Shown: in pieces, positions 23,527-26,579 of the stretch
Numbering within the stretch: the first letter of the stretch is position 1
Layout of the letters: every line of letters begins with the position of its first letter
Origin: Escherichia phage MLF4
Sequence record: NC_055780.1
Strand: one strand, 5' to 3'
DNA: 64,000 nt
Notes under the pieces: model-generated
Databases searched by the model: none
Told to the model about the DNA's origin: nothing
The model's input: the letters and a program-made list of their open reading frames with translations, nothing else
Translations under genes and position numbers: made by a program

Positions 23527-23625
23527 GAATTATTTGTTATTATTAACTCATACCGCACTGATTAATACCCTCTATCATCAAGGGTTCTTGCTAAAGAGCC
23601 TTTGTTAATAATTGGGAATCATATT

Positions 23626-24234
23626 ATGGATACTAAATTAGCTGAAATTTTTGAAGGAAAACATCCAAATTTTAGTACAGGAAAGCTGAAAGACAAAATA
23701 ATAAAAGAAAATATTTTTCCATATGAGTGTGCAATTTGTAAAATTTCAAAATGGCAAAATAAGCATATTGTTCTGCAATTAGACCATATTGATGGAAATA
23801 ACAAAAATCATCTTAAATCAAATTTAAGATTATTATGTCCAAACTGCCATTCGCAAACTGATACTTTTGCTGGTAAAAATATTAAAAATAATAAAAAGCG
23901 TTATAATGTTAGTGATGAAGAAATTTTAAACGCACTATTAAATTCGGCTACTATATCATCTGCAATTACTTCATTAGGTTTAAGTAAAGGCGGAAACTAT
24001 AAAAGATTCATTAAAATTGCTAATGATAATAAATTATATCATTTACTGGTAAATATTAATGAAAAGATTTTAACTGATGAAATTTACGAAGAATTAGTTA
24101 AAATCGATTATTCTAAATTTGGATGGGTTAGTAAAGCTGCTAAAATAATAGGTATAAGCCCACAAAAAGCTAGAAAATGGATAGAACGAAAGTGTCCAGA
24201 ATTGATAGAACAGTCTTTTTCACGTAATAAATAA
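23626..24234 (+). CDS. HNH homing endonuclease-like protein (about 202 aa)
   Basis: HNH core LQLDHIDGNNKNHLKSNLRLLCPNCHSQT; C-terminal helix-turn-helix-like region; ends 6 nt before tRNA-Leu. Confidence 0.8.
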   Translation: MDTKLAEIFEGKHPNFSTGKLKDKIIKENIFPYECAICKISKWQNKHIVLQLDHIDGNNKNHLKSNLRLLCPNCHSQTDTFAGKNIKNNKKRYNVSDEEILNALLNSATISSAITSLGLSKGGNYKRFIKIANDNKLYHLLVNINEKILTDEIYEELVKIDYSKFGWVSKAAKIIGISPQKARKWIERKCPELIEQSFSRNK

Positions 24235-24240
24235 TATAGC

Positions 24241-24327
24241 GCGAGAATGGTCAAATTGGTAAAGGCACAGCACTTAAAATGCTGCGGAATTATTTCCTTG
24301 TGGGTTCGAGTCCCACTTCTCGCACCA
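24241..24327 (+). tRNA. tRNA-Leu (anticodon TAA), class II
   Basis: Acceptor GCGAGAA/TTCTCGC, anticodon loop CTTAAAA, long variable arm, T-arm GTGGG-TTCGAGT-CCCAC, CCA encoded. Confidence 0.9.
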
Positions 24328-24332
24328 AATTT

Positions 24333-24406
<74 letters not shown>

Positions 24407-24416
24407 ATTTAATTTA

Positions 24417-24490
24417 CTCCGTGTAGCTCAGTTTGGTAGAGCGCCTGATTTGGGATCAGGAGGTCCAAGGTTCAAATCCTTGTATGGAGA
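24417..24490 (+). tRNA. tRNA-Pro (anticodon TGG), CCA not encoded
   Basis: Anticodon stem-loop CCTGA-TTTGGGA-TCAGG; T-arm CAAGG-TTCAAAT-CCTTG; acceptor with two G-U pairs. Confidence 0.85.
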
Positions 24491-24492
24491 CT

Positions 24493-24582
24493 GGAGGCGT
24501 GGCAGAGTGGTTGAATGCACCGGTCTTGAAAACCGGCAGTCGCTCCGGCGACTCATAGGTTCGAATCCTATCGCCTCCGCCA
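24493..24582 (+). tRNA. tRNA-Ser (anticodon TGA), class II
   Basis: Acceptor GGAGGCG/CGCCTCC, anticodon loop CTTGAAA, long variable arm, CCA encoded. Confidence 0.9.
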
Positions 24583-24587
24583 GTTTT

Positions 24588-24663
24588 GCTGATTTAGCTC
24601 AGTAGGTAGAGCACCTCACTTGTAATGAGGATGTCGGCGGTTCGATTCCGTCAATCAGCACCA
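24588..24663 (+). tRNA. tRNA-Thr (anticodon TGT)
   Basis: Acceptor GCTGATT/AATCAGC, anticodon loop CTTGTAA, T-loop TTCGATT, CCA encoded. Confidence 0.9.
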
Positions 24664-24664
24664 A

Positions 24665-24739
24665 GGCCCTGTAGCTGGAAGGTTCAAGCAAGCGACTCAT
24701 AATCGCCAGATGGTGGTTCAATTCCACCCAGGGCCACCA
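24665..24739 (+). tRNA. tRNA with anticodon CAT (Ile via lysidine, as in T4, or Met)
   Basis: Acceptor GGCCCTG/CAGGGCC, anticodon loop CTCATAA, T-arm GGTGG-TTCAATT-CCACC, CCA encoded. Confidence 0.8.
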
Positions 24740-24745
24740 AATTAA

Positions 24746-24832
24746 GGGGAGTTATCCCGTAGAGGTAGCGGTGTGGACTGTAAATTCATTGTCATTGCGA
24801 CTCGGGTGGTTCGACTCCATCACTCCCCACCA
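24746..24832 (+). tRNA. tRNA-Tyr (anticodon GTA), class II
   Basis: Acceptor GGGGAGT/ACTCCCC, anticodon loop CTGTAAA, long variable arm with GTC/GAC stem, T-arm GGTGG-TTCGACT-CCATC, CCA encoded. Confidence 0.75.
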
Positions 24833-24836
24833 ATTT

Positions 24837-24911
24837 GGATGTGTAGCTCAATGGCAGAGCGATCGCCTGTTAAGCGATTGGTTATAGGTTCGAATCCTAT
24901 CACGTCCGCCA
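24837..24911 (+). tRNA. tRNA-Asn (anticodon GTT)
   Basis: Acceptor GGATGTG/CACGTCC, D-arm TAGCTCAATGGCAGAGC, anticodon stem-loop ATCGC-CTGTTAA-GCGAT, T-loop TTCGAAT, CCA encoded. Confidence 0.8.
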
Positions 24912-25025
24912 AATTTGTGACAACTGTCACATTAATATCTACTTGACGCGATTATAGGGGTTGAACTGATCACTCTTCTCTTAATTTCGTGTGAAGACAT
25001 CATGATTGTTGGAGTAGGTATTAAT

Positions 25026-25101
25026 GTGGCCGTAGTTCAGTTGGTAGAACTCGAGATTGTGATTCTCGTAGTCATGGGTTCGACTCCCATCGGTCACCCC
25101 A
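25026..25101 (+). tRNA. tRNA-His (anticodon GTG)
   Basis: Acceptor GTGGCCG/CGGTCAC, anticodon stem-loop CGAGA-TTGTGAT-TCTCG, T-loop TTCGACT, CCA encoded. Confidence 0.8.
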
Positions 25102-25105
25102 ATTA

Positions 25106-25181
25106 CGGGGCATAGCTCAGAAGGAAGAGCAAGGACCTTCTAAGTCCTGGGTCGTAGGTTCGATCCCTACTGCCTCGACCA
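25106..25181 (+). tRNA. tRNA-Arg (anticodon TCT)
   Basis: Acceptor CGGGGCA/TGCCTCG, anticodon stem-loop AGGAC-CTTCTAA-GTCCT, T-loop TTCGATC, CCA encoded. Confidence 0.85.
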
Positions 25182-25199
25182 ATTATAAGTGAGGAAAAT

Positions 25200-25550
25200 A
25201 TGAAAGGTAATGTTTATTTAGTAGTTCATGATTTAACATTCTATTTTAATCATAATGATACTGTTATTTCTGAACGTGTAATTAATTTGCTTTATCAGCA
25301 TGCAGATTATGTTTATGTCGAAAACGAATATGGTCATTGGCAATTTCTCAAAAATCGTTCATTTGGTTTAGATGGTTACGAATATTTTGAACGTAAAGAC
25401 CTTTTAGATAAAATTCCGTTATCTACACAATATCAAAATCATAAGTCTTTACATAAATGTCGACTAATTCGAAATGCTGAATCTGCTTATGAAGCAATTG
25501 ATTTATGGCGTTTACGCCGTGAACAGATTGATGCTTTAAAAGAATATTAA
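25200..25550 (+). CDS. hypothetical protein (116 aa) embedded in RNA gene cluster
   Basis: ATG 25200 with GTGAGGAAAA RBS directly after tRNA-Arg; no recognised motif. Confidence 0.55.
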   Translation: MKGNVYLVVHDLTFYFNHNDTVISERVINLLYQHADYVYVENEYGHWQFLKNRSFGLDGYEYFERKDLLDKIPLSTQYQNHKSLHKCRLIRNAESAYEAIDLWRLRREQIDALKEY

Positions 25551-25889
25551 GAAGCCGGGTCGCTACCGGTAAGTCGTCGGACTGATGTTCCCTGAGTAAG
25601 GACTAGCCTTAATAAATCTTTATGTTTTGTTAATGCTCCCTTACATCACAGCAGAAACGGCGCACCGAATTATCGATTCGAGGAAATATCTTTGCCGTAA
25701 GCCGAGTAGCGTTTTTGACGGAACGTTCGGATATGGTCGAGATATGGCCTTTTAAAAATATTGAGTAGCGTCAACTGCTTGATAACCGGGTTCGAATCCC
25801 GGCGTTTCGTACAAACACTTGCCTTAGCAGGTGGAACCCCGACAAGGTTGCCGCAAGGCTTAGCCCCAGCCGAAAGGTTGGGGCTTTTT
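25551..25889 (+). ncRNA. candidate structured stable RNA(s), possibly T4 species-1/2 (rnaC/rnaD)-like, ending in intrinsic terminator
   Basis: About 340 nt with no ORF; GC content clearly above surroundings; multiple short hairpins; tRNA-like T-arm CCGGG-TTCGAAT-CCCGG at 25786-25802; terminator at 25863-25889. Confidence 0.45.
25863..25889 (+). terminator. intrinsic terminator (copy 1 of repeated element)
   Basis: GCCCCAGCC-GAAA-GGTTGGGGC hairpin plus TTTTT. Confidence 0.7.
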
Positions 25890-25891
25890 AG

Positions 25892-25899
25892 TATAAATA
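25892..25899 (+). promoter_or_regulatory. T4 late promoter TATAAATA upstream of IP-like gene
   Basis: Exact TATAAATA 37 nt upstream of ATG 25936. Confidence 0.55.
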
Positions 25900-25935
25900 A
25901 GTATATTAAATCTACAAATTAAAACAGGAAATAAG

Positions 25936-26409
25936 ATGAAATCATATACTCAATTTTTAAATGAAGCGGTGTTAAATGAAGCGTCTAGCACCGAAATTCA
26001 AGCTGTCGCAAAAGCAGCCATTGCAGCGGGTAAATATTCCTATAAAGATGCTTCTGATGAATCACGATTCCAATTTGCTCGCGACATGAAAGCAGAAGGA
26101 TTTACGGGGAATGCTGTTAGTATGGCCTGGAAAAGTTTAGTTGCTACTGGCGCTGCTTTTGCAAAGGCTTCGGGTAAACCTGCTCCTAAAGCAGATCCTA
26201 AAGTCACACAAGAGAAAAATATCGTTAAAGGAATTATCTCTAGGTATGAAGCAATTCTTAAAGAGCTTTTAGTAATCAAAACTGAAGGCCAAAAACTAGC
26301 TCGTGCTTATAGTTTCAAAGATAACCCACATGCTCACTCTCTTGAGTATGTTGAAGACATTCAAAAAATTATTAAAGACCGCATTTGGTCTGCTAAACAA
26401 ATCAAATAA
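25936..26409 (+). CDS. internal-protein-like protein with CTS-like leader (157 aa)
   Basis: N-terminus MKSYTQFLNEA resembles T4 IP capsid-targeting leader with L-x-E cleavage context; Ala/Lys-rich body. Confidence 0.6.
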   Translation: MKSYTQFLNEAVLNEASSTEIQAVAKAAIAAGKYSYKDASDESRFQFARDMKAEGFTGNAVSMAWKSLVATGAAFAKASGKPAPKADPKVTQEKNIVKGIISRYEAILKELLVIKTEGQKLARAYSFKDNPHAHSLEYVEDIQKIIKDRIWSAKQIK

Positions 26410-26417
26410 CATTCTTA

Positions 26418-26444
26418 GCCCTAGCCGAAAGGTTGGGGCTTTTT
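26418..26444 (+). terminator. intrinsic terminator (copy 2 of repeated element)
   Basis: GCCCTAGCC-GAAA-GGTTGGGGC plus TTTTT; 29-nt direct repeat of 25861-25889 with one mismatch. Confidence 0.7.
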
Positions 26445-26579
26445 GGTATCTAGGCCTTTCCAGGCCTCTCTAGGCATCATTTAGTTTCTACCCTTTATAA
26501 TATATTATCCTATCTTTTAATTGCCCCTCCCTGCCCTAGAATTCCCTAAAACTTTTTAAAAAAATTTTTTCACAAAACG

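Follow-up and report, generated by a model that had tools for sequence, protein, structure and literature searches.

The feature analysed here occupies positions 25551-25889 of a 64,000-nt stretch of the genome of Escherichia phage MLF4 (NC_055780.1; the whole stretch is hereafter the window). Its G+C content is 48.4% against a window mean of 35.0%, and values that high are found in 0.7% of the 339-nt windows of the composition profile. The first-pass annotation had remarked on this enrichment over the flanks and on the absence of a credible ORF, and on both counts it was right, the only reading frames being TTG-initiated ones of 42 aa and 53 aa and shorter ones. Its leading guess, namely that the stretch corresponds to the stable RNAs rnaC and rnaD of bacteriophage T4, is supported by 94-98% identity to the T4, RB7 and T2 locus, by annotated records and by BLAST. 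In BLAST searches, the entire 339 nt was recovered from 678 phage records at a coverage of at least 80%; the identity over 25551-25889 is 94.4% to T4 and 96.8% to RB7, in both of which rnaD and rnaC are annotated, and the labels rnaD/species 2 and rnaC/species 1 are carried by the records of RB7, RB33 and T4 and by X03016, the original T4 record. At the level of sequence, these comparisons establish 25551-25889 as orthologous to T4 rnaD (species 2) plus rnaC (species 1).

The species 1 and species 2 RNAs of T4 and its relatives, located at the end of the tRNA operon, have been known since the 1970s, and the occurrence of the locus in this phage is ordinary because it is this classical T-even pair. 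Both RNAs are an already known feature, and neither has an Rfam family: in a scan with Rfam 15 at gathering thresholds, a check foreseen in the first-pass annotation, only the upstream tRNAs pass and no family is assigned to 25551-25889, and in a relaxed scan of 25150-26500 with E up to 10, every match lies far under threshold, with no tmRNA or YrlA family among the matches. What is new here is a covariation-supported structure for each of rnaC and rnaD. Both RNAs have been detected during T4 infection, RNAC also by northern blot (PMC9697503); their function is given as unknown in reviews (PMC3014915), and our literature search turned up no functional study of either. The locus resembles that of T4 in gene order, strand, position at the operon end and the presence of the trailer hairpin and terminator, and differs from it in a 116-aa ORF before rnaD and a 157-aa cassette after the RNAs. 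Very probably, the region represents the distal part of a T-even-type tRNA operon, in which two processed non-coding stable RNAs are followed by a trailer hairpin and a terminator. Its parts are the following.

25547-25667, plus strand: homologue of rnaD (species 2 RNA), about 121 nt, with coordinates transferred from the RB7 and X03016 annotations.
25554-25570, plus strand: HP1 of rnaD, a 5-bp stem with the 7-nt loop GUCGCUA.
25573-25579, plus strand: 5' strand of the rnaD closing helix, GUCGUCG, pairing with 25658-25665.
25586-25653, plus strand: inner helix of rnaD (25586-25589 with 25650-25653) around the apical hairpin (25593-25648).
25658-25667, plus strand: 3' strand of the rnaD closing helix, CGGCGCAC, with a 2-nt tail.
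25668-25673, plus strand: 6-nt spacer AAUUAU between rnaD and rnaC.
25674-25810, plus strand: homologue of rnaC (species 1 RNA), 137 nt, from acceptor C1 to discriminator U.
25674-25680, plus strand: 5' strand of the rnaC acceptor stem, CGAUUCG, pairing with 25803-25809 (CGUUUCG) with two central U.U mismatches.
25681-25750, plus strand: P2 hairpin of rnaC in place of the D arm, 26 bp interrupted by internal loops, with a 3-nt bulge on the 5' side below the tip helix.
25715-25720, plus strand: putative kissing loop 1, UUGACG, at the tip of P2, complementary to 25769-25774.
25751-25758, plus strand: A-rich single-stranded joiner between P2 and P3, running as UUUAAAAAU into the first P3 base.
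25759-25784, plus strand: P3 hairpin of rnaC in place of the anticodon arm, a 10-bp stem with a 6-nt loop.
25769-25774, plus strand: putative kissing loop 2, CGUCAA, in P3.
25786-25802, plus strand: T arm of rnaC, CCGGG-UUCGAAU-CCCGG.
25810-25813, plus strand: discriminator U followed by ACA.
25816-25833, plus strand: 3' trailer hairpin, CACUUGC-CUUA-GCAGGUG.
25862-25890, plus strand: intrinsic terminator of the tRNA/stable-RNA operon.

Full-length homology to the species 2 gene of T4 and RB3 identifies the first RNA as rnaD: it aligns with RB3 rnaD at 98% coverage and 94% identity and with T4 rnaD at 97% coverage and 89.7% identity. Unlike in T4, it does not start directly after tRNA-Arg; the 116-aa ORF (351 nt, 25200-25550) intervenes, as it does in T2 and RB69, and because this ORF and not tRNA-Arg precedes rnaD, the 5' end is uncertain by a few nucleotides. 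The rnaD sequence is intact from 25551 on, and the intervening ORF affects how the locus is arranged and leaves the identity of the RNA untouched.

Comparison of the homologues demonstrates that rnaD consists of a 5' hairpin and a long irregular hairpin that closes on the 3' end of the RNA itself. The former, HP1, contains the hairpin CCGG-GTCGCTA-CCGG (25555-25569) singled out in the first-pass annotation; it is genuine, being 100% paired in 12 homologues and, when extended to the five pairs of HP1, showing compensatory changes at three of them. A second hairpin proposed there, TAAGG-ACTAG-CCTTA (25597-25611), lacks conservation, with 72% pairing among the homologues, and was ruled out as an alternative rnaD pairing, and in the supported structure its bases pair instead with CCUUAC further 3'. 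The local hairpin AGUC-GUCG-GACU, likewise tested as an alternative, is invariant in sequence and offers no variation to inform pairing. The closing helix is 100% paired and is without compensatory support because its sole changes are from G-C to G-U; the inner helix contributes two compensatory pairs and the apical stem five. Overall, 96% of the cells are paired and 10 pairs are compensatory, which none of 500 shuffles match, and the folding energy of rnaD relative to 200 shuffles corresponds to z=-2.1. About 45 nt of core sequence do not vary across more than 25 variants, drawn from Tevenvirinae and Vequintavirinae, and the tip of the apical hairpin is exchangeable, having been swapped between phage lineages, with at least four unrelated tip sequences. 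The 2-nt tail is CG here and CA in T4; after ...CACC, G takes the place of A.

For rnaC, the homology to the species 1 gene is again full-length, with 139 of 139 nt aligned to annotated T4 records at 97.8% identity, and the gene lies 3' in the tRNA cluster, on the same strand and upstream of the operon terminator. The 'species 1 RNA' feature of X03016 maps exactly onto 25674-25810, from the first acceptor base to the discriminator; the ends given in GenBank differ by one nucleotide on each side (139 nt in RB7 and T4, 137 nt in X03016). The comparative evidence demonstrates that rnaC presents the 'top half' of a tRNA, that is, a 7-bp acceptor stem stacked on a canonical T arm (UUCRANY loop), with a discriminator U. 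The T arm, which is 100% paired with two compensatory pairs, lies exactly where it had initially been placed, and the acceptor-like strand noted after it turns out to belong to rnaC, since 25803-25809 pairs with 25674-25680 in a stem backed by covariation. Acceptor pair 3 covaries, with G-C in 14 sequences and A-U in 9; the two U.U mismatches recur in 21 of 23 sequences, and in the TG1 type all seven pairs are standard. After the acceptor stem, UCA is encoded in relatives of the TG1 type and CCA in those of the Marfavirus type (as U-CCA). Kanagawavirus copies of rnaC have a non-canonical T loop, and therefore a canonical one is not universally required.

Below this top half, two long hairpins stand in for the D and anticodon arms, and the 6-nt loop of one is complementary to that of the other, with covariation between them. 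RNAalifold and the single-sequence MFE concur on the structure of P2, of which the base helix (AGG/CCU) is without compensatory support; the P3 stem shows compensatory changes at 7 of its 10 pairs, and the AAAAU of the joiner is invariant in the rnaC alignment. With nine rnaC sequences, RNAalifold predicts 46 pairs, 21 of them with compensatory changes. Among 23 distinct sequences, 93% of cells are paired, compared with 82% in shuffles, and 17 pairs have changed on both sides; these pairing values are reached by 0 of 500 shuffles, slid controls are 32-44% paired, and the folding energy relative to 200 shuffles gives z=-3.8. Across related phages, covariation analysis of the kind initially suggested for this region thus supports the structures of both rnaC and rnaD. 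Perfect complementarity between the loops (UUGACG and CGUCAA) is seen in every one of the 23 distinct sequences of the alignment and in three more variants (L097, Ursula and Kosakonia 305), 26 in total, with paired changes to UUGGCG/CGCCAA in three sequences and to UUGAUG/CAUCAA in two. The kissing helix is accordingly 100% paired with two of six pairs compensatory in two separate lineages, its support consisting of two such events, seen in five sequences that come from closely related groups of phages.

The geometry of rnaC is constant even in variants with unrelated P2 sequence. In 24 of 24 variants, P2 spans 70-72 nt with a 3-4-nt bulge below the tip helix, its proximal part comprises 18-22 bp, and P3, the kiss and the P2 tip together comprise 20-22 bp. 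The covariation as such would be compatible with an intramolecular kiss, a dimer or an alternative long-range helix, and cannot tell these apart; the arm lengths suggest closure within the molecule. In such a model, the two loops would kiss inside one molecule to form two side-by-side helical stacks of 20-22 bp each and, with the stacks closed in this way, rnaC would therefore offer no anticodon. Fully complementary 6-nt hairpin loops that kiss between two molecules are known from HIV-1 TAR-TAR* and from ColE1 RNA I-RNA II. The rnaC loops resemble these in being 6 nt long and fully complementary, with all loop bases able to pair, and differ in that both reside in one 137-nt RNA, for which intramolecular closure is a prediction.

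The tRNA-like features of rnaC (acceptor stem, 5-bp T stem with UUCGAAU loop, discriminator, NCA/CCA tail and the spacing within tRNA arrays) raise the question of whether it could be an aberrant tRNA that nonetheless serves in translation, or a molecule of the tmRNA kind. We regard this as extremely unlikely. At 25547-25813, ARAGORN reports no tRNA and no tmRNA, and the Rfam tRNA model likewise gives no call, in agreement with the initial failure to fold a canonical cloverleaf; the best match within the tRNA clan, tRNA-Sec, scores 16.4 bits (E=4.7), compared with gathering scores of 29 and 47. Compared with canonical tRNAs (RF00005), rnaC is 137 nt long, has a 70-nt hairpin for the D arm and a 10-bp third arm, and its 'anticodon' loop has 6 nt instead of 7, is without U33 and is fully complementary to the other loop. 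The tRNA-like domains of tmRNA and YrlA provide a further structural parallel, in that the 5' and 3' ends of rnaC form the acceptor stem, with the T arm just 5' of the 3' strand, and the remainder is a non-tRNA insert with a predicted pseudoknot-type tertiary contact. From these, rnaC differs in having no G3:U70 pair (pair 3:70 is A-U or G-C), tag reading frame, pseudoknot series or Ro-binding stem, and in having no homologue in the bacterial genomes searched.

The same alignments bear on the notion that the region encodes small proteins, the candidates being the 42-aa and 53-aa TTG ORFs (25627-25755 and 25761-25922). Automated annotation lays 'hypothetical protein' CDSs over the locus in many phages, but neither start is ATG, substitutions track RNA pairing and not codon position, single-base indels separate close relatives, P2 and the tip segments are swapped for unrelated sequence of equal length, and the RNAs themselves have been detected in T4 (PMC9697503). 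We consider a coding function extremely improbable.

With respect to distribution, both RNAs appear to occur only in phages. No match was found when GTDB genomes were scanned for the 3' half of rnaC and the rnaD core or when 5,426 complete E. coli genomes were searched with BLAST, so that neither a homologue in hosts or prophages nor any evident extended complementarity emerged from them. Pattern searches of IMG/VR returned mostly isolates already found; a relaxed rnaC pattern search gave 109 stretches, of which filtering on acceptor and T-stem pairing left one new variant, L097, nearly all of the filtered matches being ordinary tRNAs with a chance CGAGGA upstream. rnaC is always found in tRNA arrays, and rnaD is preceded by a tRNA or by a small ORF: its start lies 1-4 nt past the 3' end of a tRNA in T4 and in Dhakavirus and Vequintavirinae phages. 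In EcS1, COW86c, Moon, CF-SP2 and EnC15, rnaC lies between tRNA genes with 6-9-nt spacers, and in TG1 it is preceded by a CDS and followed by a tRNA after about 10 nt. Dhakavirus phages possess rnaD and are devoid of rnaC.

By its shape, rnaC would be excised from the operon transcript in the manner of a tRNA, with RNase P generating the 5' end at C1, trimming of the 3' end stopping at the discriminator and CCA being added in phages that do not encode it; host T-loop modification enzymes would probably act on the RNA. RNase P cutting and CCA addition are what we presume from this shape and from the T4 literature of the 1970s-80s. For rnaD, the ends would result from processing of its neighbours and from 3' trimming as far as the closing helix.

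It could be argued that such RNAs have no function in trans and are by-products or cis elements involved in processing punctuation, protection of the precursor 3' end or downstream regulation. This explanation would fit with the viability, on laboratory hosts, of T4 mutants that lack the tRNA region, and with the location of both RNAs at the operon end, flanked by processing sites, in T4-type phages. The region has, in addition, been interpreted as regulatory for downstream genes (PMC12685909). Against it, rnaC lies inside tRNA arrays and not at their 3' end in six other phages, it retains its length, kissing loops and tRNA-like end where P2 has a different sequence, and rnaD is conserved in Vequintavirinae in a different context. 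Moreover, compensatory changes are kept, which by-products would not do. Hence we view this explanation as very unlikely.

Action in trans could take the form of base-pairing: rnaD, and possibly rnaC, might be an sRNA that uses its invariant loops or unpaired stretches to bind host or phage mRNAs, like 3'ETS-leuZ, the E. coli tRNA-operon spacer RNA. The likeness is that rnaD starts near a tRNA 3' end and is processed from a tRNA precursor; the differences are that rnaD has no known sponge or target pairing, is highly structured and is preceded here by an ORF. The invariant core with its swapped tip suggests sequence-specific recognition, and a single convergent rnaD SNP, which alters performance on one host, arose in all three T4-like lines adapted to a semi-permissive E. 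coli host (PMC12685909). On the other hand, much of that core is base-paired in the supported structure, mature rnaD is without a Rho-independent U tail or an evident Hfq module, no target was found, and according to reviews a trans-acting sRNA of T4 has yet to be characterised (PMC3014915). As for rnaC, an external target is made less likely by the fact that its sole conserved loops are complementary to, and covary with, each other. On balance, an sRNA role seems unlikely. A pairing between the HP1 loop of rnaD and a GUAGCG segment of rnaC, spotted by eye, was rejected because the segment is not conserved in type-B P2 variants and because Dhakavirus phages have rnaD without rnaC.

Our best guess, offered as speculation, is instead that rnaC might be a processed, non-decoding tRNA mimic, a decoy or ligand to which host or phage proteins specific for the acceptor/T-arm domain would bind, and rnaD a host-dependent accessory RNA, a proposal that we regard as possible though not probable. 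A more specific version, which we deem distinctly unlikely, would have rnaC as a purpose-built decoy in host tRNA maturation, with a CCA-ended top half on a rigid, kiss-sealed, non-decoding two-helix bundle that titrates or misdirects a host factor recognising the top half of tRNAs, and rnaD as a second, independently mobile accessory RNA that adjusts infection in certain hosts. If the decoy proposal were true, candidate targets would include processing enzymes and toxins or defence effectors that act at the 3' end or elbow of tRNAs.

The question of what rnaC and rnaD do is about fifty years old, and in a 2025 evolution experiment a single convergent rnaD mutation appeared as the phage adapted to a new host (PMC12685909). 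The model of rnaC presented here, with its tRNA top half, covarying kiss and constant arm lengths, is concrete and testable by mutation. Furthermore, in hundreds of phage GenBank records the locus is blank or lies under 'hypothetical protein' CDSs; with no Rfam family for either RNA, the present alignments and structures could therefore fix a recurrent annotation error.

The sequence of the trailer hairpin is found directly 3' of rnaD in Dhakavirus phages without rnaC. The terminator that had been predicted at the end of the region is borne out by a 10-bp stem with seven G-C pairs and a GAAA loop (25862-25885) followed by TTTTT, and the equivalent hairpin is given as a potential terminator in X03016; the folding energy of trailer plus terminator relative to 200 shuffles corresponds to z=-3.9. 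Pfam and PHROGs assigned no function to the flanking ORFs, and no T4 late-promoter core was found within the cluster upstream of rnaD/rnaC. Downstream of the terminator lies the 157-aa ORF cassette, which carries a second copy of the terminator. The only perfect late-promoter core, TATAAATA, also sits downstream, at 25892.

The GC-rich region without a credible ORF that the first-pass annotation placed at 25551-25889 is real: its G+C content is 48.4% as against a window average of 35.0%, a level found in only 0.7% of same-length windows, and its only ORFs are TTG-started frames of at most 53 aa. The perfect T arm reported there lies at exactly 25786-25802, and the proposed terminator at the end of the region is a strong hairpin. 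The judgement that no canonical cloverleaf, and hence no standard tRNA, is present agrees with ARAGORN and Rfam, which called no tRNA, tmRNA or other family in the region, the best tRNA-clan score in Rfam being a sub-threshold 16.4 bits.

With respect to identity, the region had been tentatively equated with the T4 species 1 and species 2 stable RNAs (rnaC and rnaD, respectively). A blastn search with the 339-nt query against 50,697 phage records returned matches in 804 records, 678 of them with at least 80% query coverage; nearly all matches come from T4-like phages of Escherichia, Shigella, Yersinia, Salmonella and their relatives. The counterpart in RB7 is annotated as rnaD ('species II RNA') followed by rnaC, that in T4 as rnaC ('small, stable RNA; species 1 RNA'), and the three-way alignment is near-identical from 25551 through the terminator. 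The original T4 record, X03016, lists a species 2 RNA of 120 nt beginning one base past the end of tRNA-Arg, a species 1 RNA of 137 nt and a potential terminator. Judged by full-length homology and synteny, the locus belongs to the rnaC and rnaD families of T4; thus, the feature is already known, and the leading interpretation of the first-pass annotation was correct. The organization of the locus is as follows.

Features of the locus in order (rnaD and rnaC boundaries transferred from T4-type annotations)
24241-25181, tRNA cluster of ten tRNA genes (ARAGORN), upstream of the region
25200-25550, 116-aa ORF between tRNA-Arg and rnaD
about 25547-25667, rnaD
6-nt spacer between rnaD and rnaC
25674-25810, rnaC
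conserved trailer between rnaC and the terminator
25862-25885, followed by TTTTT, intrinsic-terminator hairpin at the end of the region

Both RNAC and RNAD have been detected during T4 infection and are placed among the late RNAs; for RNAC, a northern blot is available (PMC9697503). Their roles have been stated as unknown (PMC3014915). The recommended Rfam scan matched neither RNA, and Rfam 15 contains no family for either one. In many GenBank phage records, the stretch over rnaC and rnaD is either blank or covered by a 'hypothetical protein' CDS or two such CDSs, and one record labels the site 'tRNA-OTHER'. The gain from the present analysis is modest but real: it offers structure models for both of these phage RNAs, which still lack an explanation, as well as the kissing loop described below, and it exposes a clear gap in annotation.

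Homologues of rnaC reach far outside Tequatrovirus, to Mosigvirus RB69, Kagamiyamavirus EcS1, Kanagawavirus (Entb_45, Q7622 and Kosakonia phage 305), Karamvirus EnC15, Moonvirus (Moon and NM4.3), Tegunavirus TG1, Gelderlandvirus CF-SP2, Edwardsiella phage PEi20, Erwinia phage COW86c, Citrobacter phage Ursula and the Klebsiella Marfavirus group. In five phages outside Tequatrovirus, rnaC is flanked by tRNA genes on both sides with 6-9-nt spacers: tRNA-Trp upstream and tRNA-Gly downstream in COW86c, CF-SP2 and EnC15, tRNA-Met upstream and tRNA-Gly downstream in Moon, and tRNA-Phe upstream and tRNA-Trp downstream in EcS1; in TG1, it lies downstream of a CDS and upstream of tRNA-Trp. Exact-pattern scans of GTDB, with one genome per species, gave no hit for the 3' half of rnaC or for the core of rnaD, and a blastn search with the locus as query gave no match in 5,426 complete E. 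coli genomes; as far as these collections show, both RNAs are phage-specific.

The conserved structure in relatives that the first-pass annotation called for is present in both RNAs. For rnaC, RNAalifold analysis of nine sequences yields a 46-pair four-way junction, in which 21 pairs show compensatory changes, and the minimum free energy structure of the window rnaC alone is the same fold (-49.3 kcal/mol, z=-3.8). The two ends form a 7-bp acceptor stem (25674-25680 with 25803-25809); the D-arm position is occupied by a 70-nt hairpin (P2) and, after an A-rich joiner, the anticodon-arm position by a 10-bp hairpin with a 6-nt loop (P3), and the 3' part consists of one unpaired A, a canonical T arm and a discriminator U. 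In most phages, two U.U mismatches interrupt the centre of the acceptor stem; the TG1 type has seven standard pairs, and pair 3 covaries between G-C and A-U. Thus, rnaC shares the acceptor stem and T arm with tRNAs but lacks the cloverleaf and the anticodon loop, which rules it out as a tRNA; the absence of a G3:U70 pair and of a tag frame, together with the negative ARAGORN result, rules out a tmRNA.

T4 tRNAs without an encoded CCA have it added or repaired, and the species 1 RNA is described as about 140 nt, which would correspond to 137 + 3. The three bases encoded after the rnaC discriminator are ACA for most phages; the TG1 type has UCA here and the Marfavirus type CCA. The species 1 feature in X03016 ends precisely at the discriminator; together, these observations suggest that the mature rnaC carries a 3' CCA that is added or repaired. 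In the Kanagawavirus phages Entb_45 (locus L004, 1501-1641) and Q7622 (locus L025, 227-367), the T stem is kept with the loop UGCAUGC instead of UUCGAAU, so that the canonical T loop is not retained in every lineage; Kosakonia phage 305, placed in the same genus, has the canonical loop.

The P3 loop, CGUCAA (25769-25774), and the P2 tip, UUGACG (25715-25720), are exact reverse complements of each other. A complementary loop pair is present in every rnaC homologue despite differing carrier stems, with P2 sequences belonging to at least two unrelated families: UUGAUG and CAUCAA occur in TG1 and a related IMG/VR contig, UUGGCG and CGCCAA in Marfavirus sequences, and three further variants also have complementary loops. 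Across 23 distinct sequences, in a count covering the well-aligned helices and the loop-loop pseudoknot, the kissing helix was 100% paired, with both sides changed in two of its six pairs; the whole structure was 93% paired versus 82% in column shuffles, and 17 pairs had changed on both sides. These values were reached by none of 500 shuffles, and sliding the partners by 1-3 columns reduced pairing to 32-44%. Such covariation could also arise from a kissing dimer or from another long-range helix. Under constrained folding, all 24 variants have a P2 span of 70-72 nt and a 3-4-nt 5'-side bulge right beneath the tip helix, with a proximal part of 18-22 bp, and P3 (10), the kiss (6) and the P2 tip helix (4-6) amount to 20-22 bp. 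Both sides are therefore equally long, as an intramolecular kiss would need, and we infer that rnaC may form two helical stacks that run antiparallel and are connected at both the junction and the bulge. We found no description of this kissing loop in the accessible literature.

The second RNA, rnaD, accompanies rnaC in Tequatrovirus and Mosigvirus and occurs without it in Dhakavirus JS98, IME08 and VR5, where the trailer lies directly 3' of rnaD, so that the two RNAs are independent modules. It is also found directly after tRNA-Met in some Vequintavirinae (A5-4, W70 and LTH01), and its distribution points to horizontal transfer as an RNA module. Among these rV5-like phages, beyond the T4-like family (loci L012, L014 and L035, respectively), the rnaD-like element of LTH01 begins right past the annotated tRNA-Met, and A5-4 has two copies, a Dhakavirus-type element and a distinct LTH01-type element.

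Twelve diverse rnaD sequences support a 5-bp 5' hairpin with the loop GUCGCUA (25554-25570; three compensatory pairs), which had been spotted as CCGG-GTCGCTA-CCGG, and a long irregular hairpin closed at its base by pairing of GUCGUCG (25573-25579) to the 3'-end CGGCG(C)AC (25658-25665), followed by a 4-bp inner helix (two compensatory pairs) and an apical stem (five). Overall, 96% of cells are paired, with 10 compensatory pairs, a result matched by none of 500 shuffles. The other hairpin named in the first-pass annotation, TAAGG-ACTAG-CCTTA, did not hold up, being 72% paired across homologues, and gives way to a longer-range GUAAGG/CCUUAC pairing. On at least three occasions, unrelated sequence has taken the place of the apical tip, whereas near-invariance extends over about 45 nt in the 5' part and about 20 nt in the 3' part.

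The operon transcript would extend to the terminator (25862-25890), and rnaC would be excised in the manner of a tRNA, by RNase P at C25674 and 3' trimming to U25810 followed by CCA addition, and would owe its stability to its compactness. The 5' boundary of rnaD would be set by the cleavage that frees the tRNA ahead of it or, in this phage, by cleavage within the 3' end of the ORF, and its 3' boundary by trimming to the closing helix once RNase P has freed rnaC. Given that P2 is replaced while the arm lengths, the kiss and the acceptor/T minihelix stay constant, we speculate that selection keeps the shape of rnaC and not its sequence. The only conserved loops are consumed by each other. This pattern would fit a structural mimic and not a base-pairing regulator; conceivably, rnaC is bound by something that recognises tRNA top halves, a role as decoy or ligand being a tentative possibility. 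For rnaD, whose invariant core points to sequence-specific recognition, a base-pairing or sponge role is likewise a tentative possibility, slightly less probable. A host-dependent accessory function of rnaD fits the adaptation of a T4-like phage to a semi-permissive host, in which one rnaD SNP arose convergently in three of three lines and the virulence index rose from 0.17 to 0.98, a finding that does not identify the mechanism (PMC12685909).

Several neighboring elements deserve mention. The 114-nt spacer between tRNA-Asn and tRNA-His (24912-25025) folds well (-32.7 kcal/mol, z=-3.7) and may be another structured spacer RNA of the same operon; a 206-nt query comprising this spacer and tRNA-His is at least 80% covered in 244 phage records, in which tRNAs are the only features annotated beneath the match. 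ARAGORN detects 10 tRNAs versus 9 at the Rfam gathering threshold, the one absent from the Rfam table being tRNA-Tyr (24746-24832), with its long variable arm. At the edge of the cluster, the ORF at 23602-24234, which stops 7 nt ahead of tRNA-Leu, contains an H-N-H motif (DHIDGN...N...CPNCH; Pfam HNH E=0.005, below the cut-off) and probably encodes a homing endonuclease; T4 and RB7 have a tRNA-Gln ahead of tRNA-Leu that is missing here. The 116-aa ORF (phrog_3355, unknown function, no Pfam match), whose stop codon TAA (25548-25550) lies within the rnaD 5' leader, is present in T2 and RB69 and absent from T4 and RB7; it corresponds to the T2L 'trna.2 ORF', with primers 24 and 25 of PMC2330249 at its two ends and one mismatch in primer 24. 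Downstream, a 157-aa ORF (25936-26409; phrog_2280, unknown function) lies in a cassette (25862-26445) that includes a perfect T4 late-promoter core of its own, TATAAATA, at 25892. The terminator hairpin is present on either side in nearly identical form, at 25862-25885 and at 26417-26440. Since T4 and RB7 have a single terminator and lack this ORF, the cassette appears to have been inserted through recombination at the terminator.
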